Origin: a candidate division WOR-3 bacterium
Lineage (GTDB): Bacteria > Hydrothermota > UBA3073 > JACQXS01 > JAGMCI01
NCBI GenBank assembly: GCA_023129325.1
Contig: JAGMCI010000011.1
Coordinates: forward strand, 45,549-109,548
DNA length: 64,000 nucleotides
Direction of reading: 5' to 3'
Shown: positions 10,178-49,633 of the stretch, piece after piece
How positions within the stretch are numbered: position 1 is the first letter of the stretch
Layout of the letters: each line of letters starts with the position of its first letter
The notes under the pieces: generated by a model
The model's database searches: none
What the model was told of the DNA's origin: nothing
What the model saw: only the letters and a program-made list of their open reading frames with translations
Program-made: the position numbers and the translations under genes

Positions 10178-10252
10178 TTCGCCCCGTTTCCATACGGAAC
10201 GGGGTTCGTGTGCTGTTCGCCCCGCACCGAGATTTCTCTGGTGCGGGGTTCG
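10178..10252. mobile_element. Two CCCCG...CGGGG mini-elements, each with a TTCG target duplication, inside CACGAAC/GTTCGTG repeats
   Basis: TTCG-CCCCGTTTCCATACGGAACGGGG-TTCG (10182-10204) and TTCG-CCCCGCACCGAGATTTCTCTGGTGCGGGG-TTCG (10220-10248). Confidence 0.8.
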
Positions 10253-10359
10253 TAAATGTTCGTGCTGAGTTCGTGTTAAAACCTGTTTAATTTAATCTGT
10301 GGCTATTTCTCTCTGTGTGCTCTGTGAACTCTGTGGTTGCAACTTTGTGTGCTTTGTGG

Positions 10360-11421
10360 TTATAATTTGTCTTGCGATATTGATTTTCTTATTTTTTGCA
10401 TTGTTTGGATAAAGAAGTGGATGTTGTGTAAGGTGGCAAGGACAGGACCAAGGATTTCGCCAACTTGAAATAAATGCCTTACATAAGCACGGGTATAATT
10501 TTTGCAGGCATAACAATTACATTTTGGGTCAATAGGAGTAAAATCTTCCTGGTATGTGGCATTTTTGATAACGAGTTTGCCCTGTGAAGTAAATACAGTG
10601 CCTGTTCTACCATTTCTTGTCGGCAAGACACAATCAAATATATCAATGCCAAGTTTAGCAAATTCAATTAAATCTTCTGGTGGTCCAACACCCATTAAAT
10701 AGCGTGGTTTATCTTCCGGAAGTTCTTTTACAACATTTTTAACTATCTCGTATGATATTTCTTTTGGCTCTCCACAAGAGACACCACCTATGGCATAACC
10801 AGGGAAACCAATTTCCAATAACTTATGGCAAGCTTTTTTTCTTAAATCAATATAACTACTGCCTTGAATTATACTAAATAAAATACCACCCGTATTAGCA
10901 TTTTTACATCTTTTTGCCCATTCAGTTGTGCGTGTTATTGAGAGTTCAGTGGCTCCTCTTGTAGCTGGCCAGGAAAGACATTCATCAAATATCATTTTAA
11001 TATCAGGAGATAATATATTTTGAATATGAGCCACAAGTTCAGGTGTAAATTTATGTCGTGAACCATCAAGATGTGAAGTAAAAGTAACTCCATCATTGTC
11101 TATATCTCTTAAGTCAGCTAAAGAAAAAACCTGAAATCCACCTGAATCAGTGAGTATAGGTTTATCAAAACCTGTGAATTTATGTATTCCTTTAGCCTTT
11201 TCAATGATTTCAAGTCCAGGTCGTAAATAAAGATGATAAGCATTCATACACAGCATCTGCACTTTATTTTCCAATAAATCCCTGAACATTTGAGTTTTAA
11301 CTGTGGCTTGAGTTCCAACTGGCATAAAGACAGGCGTGTCTATTACTCCGTGTTGGGTATATAATTTCCCAATCCTGGCATTGGAAATTTTAGATTTATG
11401 TAGAATTTCAAACAATTTCAT
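10360..11421 (-). CDS. tgt: Queuine tRNA-guanine transglycosylase
   Basis: [35 protein letters not shown], CxCxxC zinc site, HN. Confidence 0.95.
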
Positions 11422-11540
11422 CTTTTAATTTTACATTAAAAGATTAAAAAATCAAGATTATTCTATATAATAATTATCAAATTCTCAAAGAATTAGATGG
11501 AAATAATAGGAAAATAAGTTTTTAATTGACAAGATTTTTC

Positions 11541-11569
11541 TTGACAAGAGGCTTTTTTTAAGATATAAT
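11541..11569 (+). promoter_or_regulatory. Sigma70-type promoter of the fabH-oxidoreductase operon
   Basis: TTGACA-N17-TATAAT, 12 nt before ATG, no SD. Confidence 0.7.
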
Positions 11570-11581
11570 TAAATTCAGACA

Positions 11582-12562
11582 ATGAGGAAATTGAAAATTA
11601 TTGGCACTGGCTCCTATGTCCCCCCAAAAGTTCTCACGAACTTTGATTTAGAAAAGATGGTAGATACTTCAGACGAGTGGATAAGGGGACGCACTGGAGT
11701 CAAGGAGAGGCATATTGTTGAAGGCAACACAGCAACATCTGACTTAGCAGTTGAAGCTGCTAAAGATGCACTTTCTGATGCTGGTCTTAAGGCTCAAGAC
11801 CTTGATGTCATAATAATAGCCACTGCCACTCCAGACACAGCTTATCCCTCCACTGCCTGCTGGACTCAGAAGGGGCTTGGCATAAAAGATATACCTGTTT
11901 TTGATATAGGAGCTGCTTGTTCTGGCTTCCTTTATGGGTTTGAAGTAGCTGCCAGTCTGATAGCGACAGGTAAATATAATAATATTTTAGTCTCAGGTGC
12001 TGAAGTAATGTCTAAAGTTGTGGATTGGGAAGACAGGAACACTTGTGTTTTATTTGGTGACGGAGCAGGTGCCTGTATTGTAGCTGCGACTGATGGCGAC
12101 AGTGGTATTCTTGCTTCTTATTTAGGGGCAGATGGGACAATTGGCCACCTCTTGGTCCAGCCAGCTGGTGGCACCCGGATGCCTGCTTCTCATGAGACAG
12201 TTGATAAGAAGCTGCATACAGTACATATGCAAGGTCGTGAAGTATTCAAATATGCTGTGAGGACAATGGGGGGTTCAGTAGCCAAAGTCCTAAAGGAGGC
12301 AAATCTAACAGCCGAAGACATAGCCCTTTATGTTCCTCATCAAGCCAATCTTCGCATTGTTGAAGCCACTTGCAGGAGGGTAAATATGCCAATGTCCAAG
12401 ACTTCAGTGATAATTGACAAATATGGCAATGTTCCTGCTTCTTCAATTCCATTGGCGCTTGATGCGGCAAACAAGAAAGGGAAGATAAAATCTGGAGATT
12501 TAGTTCTTTTTTCTGCATTTGGTGCTGGTTTTACATGGGGGGCAATGATATTTAAATGGTAA
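11582..12562 (+). CDS. fabH: Beta-ketoacyl-ACP synthase III
   Basis: DTSDEWI, AACSGF (Cys), LFGDGAGA, HQAN, YGN, FGAGFTWG. Confidence 0.95.
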   Translation: MRKLKIIGTGSYVPPKVLTNFDLEKMVDTSDEWIRGRTGVKERHIVEGNTATSDLAVEAAKDALSDAGLKAQDLDVIIIATATPDTAYPSTACWTQKGLGIKDIPVFDIGAACSGFLYGFEVAASLIATGKYNNILVSGAEVMSKVVDWEDRNTCVLFGDGAGACIVAATDGDSGILASYLGADGTIGHLLVQPAGGTRMPASHETVDKKLHTVHMQGREVFKYAVRTMGGSVAKVLKEANLTAEDIALYVPHQANLRIVEATCRRVNMPMSKTSVIIDKYGNVPASSIPLALDAANKKGKIKSGDLVLFSAFGAGFTWGAMIFKW

Positions 12563-47852: not shown

Positions 47853-47945
47853 TTTTCCCTCCTCCAAAGGATTATAATCTTTACTTCACTACTTGTCAAG
47901 TTTTTTCTTGACACAAAGTTTAAATAATGTATACTTTTACACCTA

Positions 47946-48467
47946 ATGTCTGATATAAAGTCTGTTCATATAAAAGAACGTGCTTTTCTTGCAATGATAC
48001 TTTCATCTGTTGAAGTTTATAGATATGAGACGCTCGGAATTTTACTTGGTTATAAGGGCGAAGATTCATTTGTTGTTGAATATGCTATTCCTTATCAAAC
48101 TGCCGTTAAGGGTTATTCTTGGGTAGCCCCGAAGTCAAGAGCATCTGAAAGGATGGTCAAAATTCTTGAGCGTATGTCAATTAATGTTATAGGAGATTTC
48201 CATTCTCATACTCAGTGGGGTGACTTTAAAGGTAAACCCGTCCCTTCAGGGGAGGATATTGCTGATATGGAACTTAATAAAATTTATGCCATCGTTGCCG
48301 TTAATGATAAACAAAAGAAGGAATCGTGGCATCGTACAGAAGCAGGCACTATTGTTGGGACTTTGAGTGATTATAGTCTGGAGATTGGAGCCCATATTCT
48401 TGTCAGTAATTACAAATCAAAGTCTGTAAAAATAATATGCCCAAGCGCCACGGGGCTATCATATTAA
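47946..48467 (+). CDS. JAB/MPN (JAMM) metalloprotease-domain protein
   Basis: ETLGILLG...GDFHSHT...PSGEDI (E-HxH-S-D); promoter TTGACA-N16-TATACT at 47908-47935. Confidence 0.8.
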   Translation: MSDIKSVHIKERAFLAMILSSVEVYRYETLGILLGYKGEDSFVVEYAIPYQTAVKGYSWVAPKSRASERMVKILERMSINVIGDFHSHTQWGDFKGKPVPSGEDIADMELNKIYAIVAVNDKQKKESWHRTEAGTIVGTLSDYSLEIGAHILVSNYKSKSVKIICPSATGLSY

Positions 48468-48468
48468 A

Positions 48469-49488
48469 GTGATGAAATATAAAGAGGCTGGTGTTGATAT
48501 AGAAAAGGGCGACACCTTTAAAAAATATATTAAAAAGCTAAGTAATGTTATTGGAGGCTTTGGGGGGACTTTTGAGATTCCAAAAGGCTACAAACATCCT
48601 CTCCTTGTTTCCTCAGTGGATAGTGTGGGCACAAAGCTTAAAATTGCAATGCAACTCGGAATCCATAATACAGTTGGTAAAGATATAGTCAATCATTGCG
48701 TAAATGATATTTTAACCCTTGGCGCCAAGCCTTTATATTTTATGGATTATATAGGAACTGGAAAGTTAAATTTAGAACAGCAAAAAGAAGTAATAAATGG
48801 AATTGTAGATGCTTGCAAAGAAAACGATATTTTGCTGCTTGGTGGCGAGACAGCTGAATTACCAGGACTTTACAATCTTGAAGAATACGATTTAGTTGGC
48901 TTTATTACTGGAATAGTAGAAAAAAATAATTTAATAGATGGAAGTAAGATAATGCCAGGCGATAAACTCATCGGCCTTCCTTCAAACGGACTTCATACTA
49001 ATGGGTATTCACTTGTCCGAAAGATTATAAAGGATAAAGGTCTATCACTTAATCTTAAAATTCCAGAACTTGGTTCTGGACTTGGCGAAGAGCTTTTGAA
49101 AATCCACAGGTCTTATAAGGACTTGCTCACTCCCTTCCTTGACAAAGTAAAAGGACTTATTCACATAACAGGTGGTGGATTTTATGGAAATGTGCCAAGA
49201 ATTTTGCCAAAAGGGTTGGGAGCTAAAATTTATAAAGACTCATGGGACATCCCACCTATATTTAAATTTATTCAGCATGAAGGAGAAGTTGAAGAAAGAG
49301 AAATGTTTGAAGTTTTTAATATGGGAATAGGAATGATTGTGATTGTGGATGACTTTGAAGTACTCTCTGGGATTTGTGCCATAAGCACATCCCTGCCCGA
49401 TGGACGGCAGGCGGGCACCTTTGGTGGAAAGGAAAAAATATCATTTATAGGAGAAATTAAGAGGGGAGAAAGAGTAGAAATTATTTGA
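48469..49488 (+). CDS. purM: Phosphoribosylformylglycinamidine cyclo-ligase
   Basis: YKEAGVDI, GGETAELPG, SNGLHTNGYSL, HITGGG, FNMGIG. Confidence 0.95.
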   Translation: MMKYKEAGVDIEKGDTFKKYIKKLSNVIGGFGGTFEIPKGYKHPLLVSSVDSVGTKLKIAMQLGIHNTVGKDIVNHCVNDILTLGAKPLYFMDYIGTGKLNLEQQKEVINGIVDACKENDILLLGGETAELPGLYNLEEYDLVGFITGIVEKNNLIDGSKIMPGDKLIGLPSNGLHTNGYSLVRKIIKDKGLSLNLKIPELGSGLGEELLKIHRSYKDLLTPFLDKVKGLIHITGGGFYGNVPRILPKGLGAKIYKDSWDIPPIFKFIQHEGEVEEREMFEVFNMGIGMIVIVDDFEVLSGICAISTSLPDGRQAGTFGGKEKISFIGEIKRGERVEII

Positions 49489-49557
49489 TGACAAATTAAA
49501 AATCAAAATGCAAAAATCAAAAATAATAATATTTAATACTTTATGAGAATATCTGCG

Positions 49558-49633
49558 TTCACCCCGTTAGATGACTTTTCGTATCTAACGGGGTTCATTT
49601 GCGTCTAATCCCGCACATAAGTCATGTGCGGGA
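49558..49633. mobile_element. TTCA-flanked CCCCGTTAGA...TCTAACGGGG element followed by a TCCCGCAC...GTGCGGGA palindrome
   Basis: TTCA-CCCCGTTAGATGACTTTTCGTATCTAACGGGG-TTCA (49562-49593); TCCCGCACATAAGTCATGTGCGGGA. Confidence 0.8.

Follow-up and report, generated by a model that had tools for sequence, protein, structure and literature searches.

The small dispersed repeats SDR1-8 of Nostocaceae, reportedly described by Elhai et al. in 2008 (Genome Res 18:1484), are said to be hairpins of 21-27 nt, and ever since these cyanobacterial SDRs it has been debated by what route dispersed hairpin repeats of such small size spread. According to excerpts of later papers, SDR5 inserts between nucleotides 3 and 4 of HIP1 (PMC4390886), and SDRs are described further in PMC5861425 and PMC3116915. 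REPs and REPINs appear in excerpts of PMC3733652 and PMC3116915 as GTAG- or CGTC-tagged palindromes with RAYT tyrosine transposases; the CGTC-tagged REPs are presented there without a dedicated enzyme, their spread being likewise open (PMC3733652). An excerpted review gives a length of about 80 to 439 nt for MITEs in its table and of about 105-146 nt for Rickettsia palindromic elements (RPEs) (PMC3184786).

We analyzed a 64-kb stretch of DNA (hereafter the window) from the genome G000 (57 contigs, 89% complete), whose host is an uncultured sediment bacterium. The original prediction for the window proposed five CCCCG...CGGGG elements with exact flanking TTCR duplications. All five were found as described, with hairpins of 23, 29, 26, 23 and 32 nt and matching TTCG or TTCA on both sides, together with a sixth at 42529-42557. 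Copy D1 (10178..10208, + strand) consists of TTCG, the 23-nt hairpin CCCCGTTTCCATACGGAACGGGG and TTCG, and lies in a host repeat made of a GTTCGTG array, where it occupies the first GTTCG unit. Copy E1 (10216..10252, + strand; TTCG, 29-nt hairpin, TTCG) occupies the second TTCG unit of this host repeat. Copy F (25017..25050, + strand) is a 26-nt perfect palindrome between two TTCA motifs in an ARMT1/DUF89-like gene (24689-25570, - strand). The additional copy G (42525..42561, + strand), a 29-nt hairpin whose left flank is TTCG and whose right flank is TTCA, lies within an open frame at the 5' end of a papain-family peptidase gene (39108-42578, - strand), a position that is only putatively coding. 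Copy D2 (44411..44441, + strand; TTCG, 23-nt hairpin, TTCG) is nested in a GTAG-type REP (~44392-44449), which is itself in frame within a surface-protein ORF (42917-45073, - strand). Copy B1 (49558..49597, + strand; TTCA, 32-nt hairpin, TTCA) lies in the spacer between 48469-49488 (+) and 49646-50563 (+) and is one of seven class-B copies, flanked as ATCTGCG TTCA (hairpin) TTMA TCTGCG. The intergenic position of the hairpins at 10182, 10220 and 49562 was confirmed, and those at 25021 and 44415 are in long ORFs. A related 26-nt hairpin, CCCCGCACTTATGCATAAGTGCGGGG (20382..20407, no strand assigned), lacks TTCR flanks and was not counted as a member; an identical hairpin has TTCG on both sides in two copies in the genome G031.

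Searching the window with the patterns TTCGCCCCG N8-38 CGGGGTTCR and TTCACCCCG N8-38 CGGGGTTCR yielded four and two matches, respectively, all six on the + strand, and neither pattern matched any of 100 dinucleotide shuffles of the window. A reversed-pattern control gave no match in 271/272 genomes. The strict pattern occurs nine times in G000, six of these within the window, and a tenth copy with TCCCG...CGGGA ends was found at C56:26360. In the strict copies, terminal complementarity is perfect over 5-13 bp and always begins with CCCCG. The prediction that interiors differ while ends and target are conserved held, with pairing and the CCCCG/CGGGG ends retained around interiors lacking mutual sequence likeness. 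Folded as single-stranded DNA, the six window copies form single hairpins with energies between -7.3 and -15.5 kcal/mol; in five cases no more than 3/200 shuffles fold equally well, and the fold of the remaining one (44411-44441) is weak (z = -1.2, 23/200 shuffles equal). A G is present at position -5 in 6/9 G000 copies, which would permit a 5-bp repeat. Some copies have no TTCR on the right (in G000, class C has the form TTCA...CAGG), and half-sites number 34 on the left versus 15 on the right. The hairpins cluster in repeat-rich spacers. A 25-nt hairpin of G031 is found with its loop in either orientation between unchanged TTCA flanks. At 23-32 nt, in genes and spacers at TTCR, the units are among the smallest mobile-looking DNA seen.

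Comparison with orthologous and paralogous loci revealed empty sites. Copy F adds 10 residues (NPALVHKGGV) to the ARMT1/DUF89-like protein, which the modelled structure places in the loop that links helix 161-174 to strand 188-193. This insert is missing in 5/5 genome orthologues and in 6/6 database homologues, some of which are probably duplicates of the genome orthologue proteins, and the G031 orthologue reads GAAGAAATGAACAAACC at the site, with a single TGAA. Exact 30-nt inserts were likewise found in a V-ATPase subunit E-like gene (C4:24802; missing in 5/5 orthologues) and in the CN-hydrolase gene at C56:26360 (missing in 4/4 orthologues). For copy G, no orthologue aligned over the N-terminal part of the peptidase, precluding an empty-site comparison. 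The REP hosting D2 has five other copies, all uninterrupted at GTGTTYGCCC, and for the intergenic copies E1, E2 and B3 paralogous host repeats carry a single TTCR and no hairpin (for E1 at C22:19174 and C25:1799). C6:87491, a sister copy of B1, has a hairpin-free paralogue at C38:3679. The 29-nt hairpin E occupies different TTCG units in two copies of one host repeat, and these are independent insertions. The flanks of class D change together, comprising TTCG/TTCG (twice), TTCA/TTCA (in the genome G007), TTTA/TTTA (C30:21449) and CTCA/CTCA (C45:25041), as expected of target duplication. The 4-bp duplication originally predicted is borne out by these single-TTCR-like empty sites and co-varying flanks, and the units are true insertions with a duplicated TTCR target. 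No insertion polymorphism was seen at three sites, where the remaining sequencing runs gave too little coverage to decide.

The architecture is patchily distributed, occurring in 7/272 genomes of the phylum, two of which resemble chance non-hairpin matches, and is also present in other phyla. Hairpins can be identical between genomes (class C, 29/29 between G000 and G031; class D, 23/23 between G000 and G007; class A, 26/26), and orthologous proteins compared between genomes sharing identical hairpins have 32-79% identity. The hairpins are shown to be reused at different TTCR sites, to nest and to be shared between genomes.

Net length (interior plus 4) had been predicted to be always a multiple of three (3n), possibly as an intrinsic property of the family. 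The first part stood in G000, where all nine strict copies and the tenth at C56:26360 are 3n, and failed in relatives, the exceptions being a 25-nt class in G031 (two strict and two relaxed copies) and a 16-nt copy in the genome G004. Phylum-wide, 32/35 copies and 11/13 sequence classes are 3n, so the enrichment within the phylum is real. The second part was not supported by a cross-phylum sample, in which distinct hairpins outside open frames of at least 100 aa are 3n in 3/10 cases, the level of chance. Within such frames the count is 11/15, and this difference is the pattern expected from post-insertion selection in coding DNA. The 3n idea is reduced to an enrichment that such selection largely explains.

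With modest confidence, we favor the explanation that the units are non-autonomous micro-transposons. Each would consist only of a GC-clamped hairpin, that is, a 5-13-bp inverted repeat starting with CCCCG and ending with CGGGG around a short loop. The integration target would be the tetranucleotide TTCR, often as GTTCR, and a 4-nt staggered cut followed by fill-in would leave TTCR on both sides, cutting and integration being performed by an enzyme supplied in trans. Units may land in spacers, other repeats and genes; in genes, only net-3n insertions in tolerant loops would survive, and this survival would produce most of the multiple-of-three pattern.

Searches for such an enzyme did not identify one. 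IS1380-family elements have CC ends and 4-5-bp repeats, and the original prediction had pointed to this family and to an autonomous element with the same termini. That lead did not hold, as the profile NF033539 gave nothing over cut-off in five genomes (G000, G031, G037, G007 and G002), its sole match being a 23-bit fragment in G031, and no long-range TTCRCCCCG...CGGGGTTCR pair, and no autonomous IS with these termini, was found in the 89% of the genome assembled as G000. Derivation from IS1380 is accordingly not supported; CC...GG ends with a 4-5-bp repeat are present but too unspecific. DDE_Tnp_1 (PF01609) had no match in G000, G037 or G007 and two in G031, at loci devoid of CCCCG and CGGGG motifs. 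TnpB was found in 0/4 carriers, G000 included, and a Pfam scan of 50 window ORFs, which left about 10 ORFs at 50.8-64 kb outside, contained no transposase-like gene. The failure of these searches to find an enzyme or autonomous element counts against micro-transposons, as do the copies without a right-hand TTCR and the size of the units, since, to our knowledge, a 23-nt substrate is far smaller than any transposon with a known synaptic complex; moreover, window copies confined to one strand and antisense in-ORF copies would not be expected if both strands were handled symmetrically.

These strand features are better accommodated by single-strand "peel and paste" through an HUH Y1 enzyme (RAYT or IS200/IS605-like), in which hairpin and TTCR would leave together as one single-stranded unit and enter exposed single strands on the 3' side of a TTCR. 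The seeming duplication would then combine the target with a cleavage site that belongs to the element. Window copies are on one strand in 6/6 cases, and TTCR is antisense to the ORF in 5/5 in-ORF copies of G000. A hairpin with a tetranucleotide is a known type of Y1 substrate in the excerpted account of PMC3733652, and G000 lacks DDE_Tnp_1, IS1380 and TnpB genes in profile searches and has four Y1_Tnp genes. Three of these are flanked by GTAG-tagged hairpins, giving them a RAYT/REP-like look, and the remaining one has no GC-rich hairpin within 900 nt. However, TTCR hairpins flank 0/4 of the Y1 genes, the four proteins had no tblastn homologue elsewhere among the loci compared, 80 cross-phylum loci included, and Y1_Tnp is present in 31/41 relatives versus hairpins in only 4/41. 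The class D flanks, including TTTA/TTTA and CTCA/CTCA, co-vary as a fixed element end would not, and both loop orientations of the G031 25-nt hairpin lie between identical TTCA flanks. Judged as a PATE of the IS200/IS605 type, the units fit in target specificity and strand bias but not in co-varying flanks and flipped loops. We consider this mechanism unlikely, though the likeliest of the rivals.

Transposase-free template switching by a polymerase appears improbable. A nascent TTCR end would pair beside a distant hairpin, copy the hairpin and TTCR, and return via 4-nt microhomology. The identity of the 4 nt at target and element flank, the clustering of hairpins in repeat-rich spacers and the failure to find a mobilizing gene in the searches made agree with this scheme. 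Yet bacteria rarely switch templates between loci on 4 nt of homology, the donor flank should be inherited, so that the rarer TTTA, CTCA and CTGA repeats need matching donors, and identical hairpins across genomes of different families are left unexplained. Also in favor are the stalling of polymerases at hairpins and the tie between slippage and pausing, both suggested by reference titles in PMC2884548.

Still less probable, and only slightly credible, is that the hairpins are non-mobile functional structures (for instance terminators, RNA stability elements or protein-binding sites) with TTCR as part of the motif and the in-gene cases coincidental. The G031 copies are mostly intergenic (18/19), two adjoining tRNA genes, and REP-type hairpins are thought to be RNA elements (PMC3733652). 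Against this, no T-run follows the five window hairpins first predicted, Rfam at gathering score identified one tRNA and no other family in the window, and exact 27-36-nt inserts occur in conserved enzymes and in another repeat with empty sites elsewhere; insertions into coding sequence argue against functional hairpins as a full account. Chance or assembly artefact is refuted for practical purposes, for although the assembly is fragmented and incomplete and in both the source run and another run (X2) contigs terminate within copy 49562-49593, shuffles and reversed patterns gave the null counts reported above, the source run, when assembled independently, covers the copies at 42529 and 44415 with no differences, and the same architecture recurs in other genomes and phyla.

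A bolder reading is a proposal that we hold only tentatively and think more likely wrong than right. The hairpins may be smaller than any transposable unit so far seen to duplicate its target (23 nt, essentially two 9-bp ends plus a loop), moved by a kind of enzyme new to transposition or by an undescribed Y1/RAYT mode, with hairpin families in this lineage of bacteria sorted for net 3n by selection between element lineages. If the proposal were true, 3n-sorted hairpin families could start from genes to colonize a genome that is 92% coding. The system offers an unusually clean handle on the spread of such repeats: the target is defined to 4 nt, the duplication can be seen directly, orthologues and paralogues provide filled as well as empty sites, and one hairpin is reused at neighboring TTCG units. 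The coexistence of carriers and non-carriers inside one phylum allows comparative gene hunting. Selfish DNA that writes 9-12-residue loops into housekeeping enzymes also bears on annotation and on the reading of indels in protein alignments.

Among known systems, MITEs share with the TTCR hairpins the terminal inverted repeats, the target-site duplication, the non-coding nature and the occurrence of empty and filled sites, and differ in size: as predicted, the 23-32-nt units, with only a loop between the inverted repeats, are far shorter than the ~80-439 nt in the excerpted table (PMC3184786). A parent IS or matching transposase was not found in the carriers searched, whose assemblies are incomplete. 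RPEs, as far as excerpts describe them, are palindromic selfish DNA lying in frame in conserved protein genes and adding a surface peptide; the 10-aa in-frame inserts in the ARMT1-like, V-ATPase E-like and CN-hydrolase genes, that of copy F in a modelled loop, are similar, but TTCR units add just 9-12 residues, a roughly five-fold difference in size, and the resemblance would be a functional likeness, not membership. REPs, in the excerpted sources, are also GC-rich hairpins (20-40 nt), patchy between species, with known intragenic copies, and genuine GTAG REPs and RAYT-like genes reside in G000. They have one unpaired end tag, whereas the TTCR hairpins have the same tetranucleotide on both sides, varying by site, do not flank Y1 genes and, in D2, sit inside a GTAG REP. 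We did not assign the units to REP/RAYT, having found neither an unpaired GTAG/CGTC end tag nor copies flanking a Y1 gene. SDRs, compared by description only from excerpts, differ in host (Nostocaceae versus a Candidatus Stahlbacteria / WOR-3 relative), in target (HIP1 versus TTCR) and in that an explicit 4-bp duplication is seen for the TTCR hairpins. The excerpts otherwise portray SDRs as very small (21-27 nt versus 23-32 nt here), as families of unrelated sequence with a common hairpin fold and no known enzyme, as having a precise short insertion target and as nesting in other repeats and in heptamer-like arrays or mini-elements, all as found here. By analogy of properties, the TTCR hairpins would qualify as SDR-like and probably work like SDRs, and the cyanobacterial small dispersed repeats, together with REPs, are their closest known counterparts.

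Scanning the window for CCCCG...CGGGG hairpins with 5-60 bases between the ends revealed seven, six of which carry a TTCR tetranucleotide on both sides. Inspection of the window sequence found the five copies of the original prediction exactly as written (D1, 10182-10204; E1, 10220-10248; F, 25021-25046; D2, 44415-44437; B1, 49562-49593; letters denote hairpin sequence classes), and a sixth flanked copy that had been overlooked lies at 42529-42557 (copy G), with TTCG on its left and TTCA on its right. The flanked pattern, in its two forms, gave four and two window matches, all on the plus strand, and none in 100 shuffles per form. 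Folded as single-stranded DNA, each of the six copies forms one hairpin (-7.3 to -15.5 kcal/mol), better than at least 197 of 200 shuffles in five cases, 44411-44441 being the exception (z = -1.2). The seventh hairpin (20382-20407) has no TTCR flanks; this identical 26-nt palindrome, CCCCGCACTTATGCATAAGTGCGGGG, recurs with varied non-TTCR flanks at C2:16021, C14:58471 and C25:12848 (C, contig of the source genome), and at least two of its copies lie inside apparent coding sequence, of a macro-domain-like and a PCMT-like gene.

The window (C3:45549-109548) belongs to an assembly of 2.02 Mb in 57 contigs (36% G+C, rated 89% complete) in which the tRNA-guanine transglycosylase has its nearest named homologues in Candidatus Stahlbacteria (66-69% identity) and candidate division WOR-3 (57%); the sequencing runs containing the window are labelled cold-seep metagenomes. 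About 92% of the window is coding by a simple ORF count, and scanning 50 window ORFs against Pfam (about ten ORFs at 50.8-64 kb were left out) returned ordinary housekeeping and surface-protein genes and no transposase. An N6/N4 DNA methylase gene (9149-9994) adjoins a 196-aa ORF without a Pfam match (region 8569-9994) and lies immediately downstream of copies D1 and E1, and a stand-alone HNH endonuclease ORF of 175 aa occupies 18029-18556. A tRNA gene (15403-15475, 67.5 bits) overlaps the beginning of ORF 15382-16890, a mechanical call whose start is therefore probably wrong.

Genome-wide, 71 CCCCG...CGGGG pairs with 3-80 bases between the ends fall into a handful of recurrent hairpin classes. 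TTCR stands on both sides in 9 of these 71, six of them in the window and the others at C4:24802, C41:20786 and C54:59; a tenth copy, with ends TCCCG...CGGGA, lies at C56:26360. Six of the nine strict copies thereby occupy 3.2% of the genome, within 40 kb (10178-49597) of one contig (binomial 8e-8), and no mobile gene was found near this cluster. Left half-sites (TTCR-CCCCG) number 34 in the genome against 15 right ones, and the right repeat is decayed or gone in several copies (TTAA or TAAA in class B; CAGG in class C of the source genome).

The central reading of the original prediction, that these are mobile micro-elements with TTCR target duplication, is supported by empty sites in both orthologues and paralogues. 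Copy F amounts to exactly ten extra residues, NPALVHKGGV, in an ARMT1/DUF89-like gene, and these are missing in 5/5 orthologues of related genomes and 6/6 database homologues. The closest orthologue reads GAAGAAATGAACAAACC, with one tetranucleotide, versus GAAGAAA-TGAA-(26 nt)-TGAA-TAAACC in the window; in a set of 5.8 billion proteins the nearest homologue reaches 76% identity. An AlphaFold model of the protein (mean pLDDT 86, 7-sequence alignment) places the insert between helix 161-174 and strand 188-193, a position in keeping with a tolerated surface loop. Ten-residue inserts were likewise found in a V-ATPase subunit E-like gene (C4:24802) and in a carbon-nitrogen hydrolase gene (C56:26360), missing in 5/5 and 4/4 orthologues, respectively. 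The nitrilase-family orthologue of genome G007 (locus L045, contig C43) has its own extra segment, VEAGLNPAPTRVC, elsewhere in the gene and not the source-genome insert, which suggests insertion of a different repeat into the same gene.

Repeats within the genome provide further empty sites. Copy D2 interrupts a 26-nt GTAG-tagged REP (a tagged palindrome of the kind paired with RAYT, or Y1_Tnp, genes), five other copies of which run uninterrupted at ...GTGTTYGCCC. Copy E1 occupies the second TTCG in a host repeat of ~55 nt composed of GTTCG(TG) units. At C22:19174 and C25:1799 this host repeat is hairpin-free at that place, while the C54 copy bears the same 29-nt hairpin at the third TTCG instead; copy D1 lies in the first unit of the window's host repeat. 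A class-B copy at C6:87491 is matched by a hairpin-free paralogous site at C38:3679, whose flanks are the same at all but 1 of 24 positions. No orthologue spans the site of copy G: the N-terminal 170 residues of its protein have no alignment in five genomes. Four runs were compared over window 29800-49799, where the three copies are covered by the probable source run alone; with a depth of 0-2 near 42.5 kb and 44.4 kb, the other three runs are too thin to judge presence/absence polymorphism. Contigs from both the source run and run X2 end inside the 49562 hairpin.

The surroundings of these sites are themselves rich in repeats. The ~55-nt GTTCG(TG) host repeat (window 10100-10340, C22:19150-19260, C25:1780-1880, C54:1-160) is adjoined by CTCTGTG-type heptamer runs, and the source genome's intergenic regions are patchworks of short modules of this kind. 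GTAG-tagged REPs (GTAGGGGCGAACCYRYGTGTTYGCCC, variant GTAGGGGCAAGCCC...) lie in frame within the surface-protein ORF 42917-45073 (window 44357-44449) and also occur at C6:2038, C13:17891, C16:11938, C28:1329 and C48:19654; in frame they encode peptides such as GNRKGLPLQ, of which the surface protein contains several stretches. At window 44782-45111 a contig of run X3 has 24 bases fewer than the window, and a source-run contig has 8 bases extra after 45102; the 5' part of the surface-protein gene may thus carry small indel polymorphisms.

Whether TTCR is a duplicated target or a fixed end of the element can be addressed with class D (CCCCGTTTCCRTRCGGAACGGGG), which is flanked by TTCG/TTCG twice in the window, by TTCA/TTCA in G007, by TTTA/TTTA at C30:21449 and by CTCA/CTCA at C45:25041, where the ends read ACCCG...CGGGT. 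Left and right flanks thus vary in concert, and in genome G031 a 25-nt hairpin has its loop in both orientations between unchanged TTCA flanks, so a duplicated target fits better than a fixed element end. The strand bias points the other way: six of six window copies are on the same strand (two-sided 0.03, a small sample), and all five source-genome copies within open frames have TTCR on the antisense strand (two-sided 0.06, again a small sample) and encode xEPR...RGE-type or NPA...GGVN-type peptides. Orientation is mixed in a cross-phylum sample, where gene calls are ambiguous. Because a G precedes the left TTCR in 6/9 source-genome copies and the hairpin terminates in G, the repeat in those copies is also compatible with a length of 5 bp.

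The strict pattern occurs in 4/41 close and distant relatives and in 7/272 genomes of the phylum, with 9 copies in the source genome, 19 in G031, 5 in G037, 1 in G007 and 1 (a 16-nt hairpin) in G004; the remaining two genomes have one chance-like, non-hairpin match each, and the reversed-pattern control gave 0 in all but one of the 272 genomes. Identical hairpins are common to the source genome and G031 (classes A and C) and to the source genome and G007 (class D); the orthologous proteins compared between these genomes share only 32-79% identity. Most G031 copies reside in a larger inverted-repeat element of ~200 nt, whose flanks, aatctgtgTTCA(hairpin)TTCAtcagtgtaaatc, enclose either a 29-nt or a 25-nt hairpin. 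The TTCA form was also scanned across phyla, with one genome per species of bacteria and archaea, which yielded at least 120 stretches, 80 of them taken as loci, as a sample. Among the matches listed, TTCA hairpins occur in Omnitrophota, Planctomycetota, Patescibacteria, Bacteroidota, Zixibacteria and others, including a recurrent group with the common stem CCCCGTTAGA...TCTAACGGGG and one Omnitrophota copy with ATCTGCG flanks identical to those in the source genome. Eight loci (L082, L092, L098, L148, L107, L086, L123 and L126) have the common outer context GATTC-TTCA-(hairpin)-TTCA-GAATGACA, in records from Bacteroidota, Patescibacteria, Dehalococcoidia and Zixibacteria, as if the unit had inserted into a different palindromic repeat that is itself widespread.

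The original prediction held that net lengths (hairpin plus 4) are always multiples of three, a rule that stands in the source genome (9/9; 10/10 with the C56 copy) and breaks in the phylum. Under the strict pattern, 32/35 copies and 11/13 sequence classes across the phylum are multiples of three (P = 2e-4 at class level), as are 7/9 classes new to the original prediction (P = 0.008), and shared descent is no trivial explanation of this bias because the interiors are unrelated in sequence. The exceptions are the 16-nt copy of G004 and the 25-nt class of G031, with four copies (two of them ending in G-T wobble pairs), of which one lies at a gene junction and the others are intergenic. At that junction, of a DegT-like and a UDP-GlcNAc 2-epimerase-like gene (L063, G031:C40:20442-22474), the 25-nt hairpin has TTCA flanks and a net length of 29 nt; one frame is open along the entire 2-kb locus, and the two genes may therefore be fused. 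Among the cross-phylum matches listed, counting perfect terminal stems of at least 8 bp, identical hairpins once and leaving out two loci that repeat G031 matches, 14/25 distinct hairpins are multiples of three, 11/15 inside frames of at least 100 aa and 3/10 outside. A loose hairpin filter on these listed matches (38/66) was set aside because it lets in chance matches from coding DNA that is rich in G+C and has repeats recurring in phase with the codons. Among 457 GC-clamped hairpins of the source genome, from a scan whose filters excluded bulged hairpins and TTCA cases, a 4-bp flanking repeat was found in 8 versus 3 in an offset control; 3/8 such non-TTCR hairpins are multiples of three, so there is no such signal outside the TTCR family.

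Intergenic copies show the excess in the source genome (5/5) and G031 (17/19), within few classes; in the cross-phylum sample, where 3/10 hairpins outside frames are multiples of three, it is lacking. Given the latter and the 25-nt and 16-nt exceptions, the proposal that frame preservation is intrinsic to the family was not borne out. The rule appears neither intrinsic nor absolute and mostly reflects which insertions persist in coding DNA; the intergenic excess in the source genome and G031 may stem from selection among element lineages in a dense genome.

No autonomous insertion sequence with matching termini emerged among the families and termini tested. In the source genome no termini pair at IS-like spacing; TnpB (PF07282) was found in 0/4 carrier genomes, an IS91-type Y2 gene in G037 only and DDE_Tnp_1 in G031 only, at loci without a CCCCG or CGGGG motif. 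The suggested kinship with IS1380 found no support, its family model giving no match over its cut-off. Lack of an IS proves little, since all assemblies are draft. A single-strand route, in which an HUH enzyme would move the hairpins, seems unlikely to us: Y1_Tnp is present in 31/41 relatives and its presence does not follow the hairpins. No TTCR hairpin flanks any of the four Y1_Tnp genes of the source genome (L001-L004; C36:23050-23388, C18:6562-6882, C56:33585-33857, C22:8619-8927); hairpins with a GTAG(C) tag enclose three of them, which look like RAYT/REPtron units with their own REPs, and the fourth has no GC-rich hairpin within 900 nt. A tblastn search of the other loci collected, the 80 cross-phylum ones among them, with these four proteins as queries (a set of low sensitivity) found no match at E 1e-3. 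We lean instead, with some reserve, towards integration at a staggered cut, which a trans-acting enzyme would make.

By analogy, the TTCR units work like a small dispersed repeat (SDR) or a minimal MITE, a likeness of properties rather than proof of membership. REPs, as far as the available text describes them, differ in carrying a single GTAG or CGTC tag (PMC3733652); at 21-65 bp they are termed some of the smallest repeats known in a review whose MITEs, in the portion available, measure 80 nt and above and whose in-frame palindromic inserts of Rickettsia are five times the size of a TTCR unit (PMC3184786). SDR5 is described as inserting into HIP1 between bases 3 and 4 (PMC4390886). The closest match, on the portions of the literature available, is with the SDRs of Nostocaceae, which resemble the TTCR units in size, precise short target, nesting, residence in short-repeat arrays and mini-elements, and retention of the hairpin fold under sequence change.
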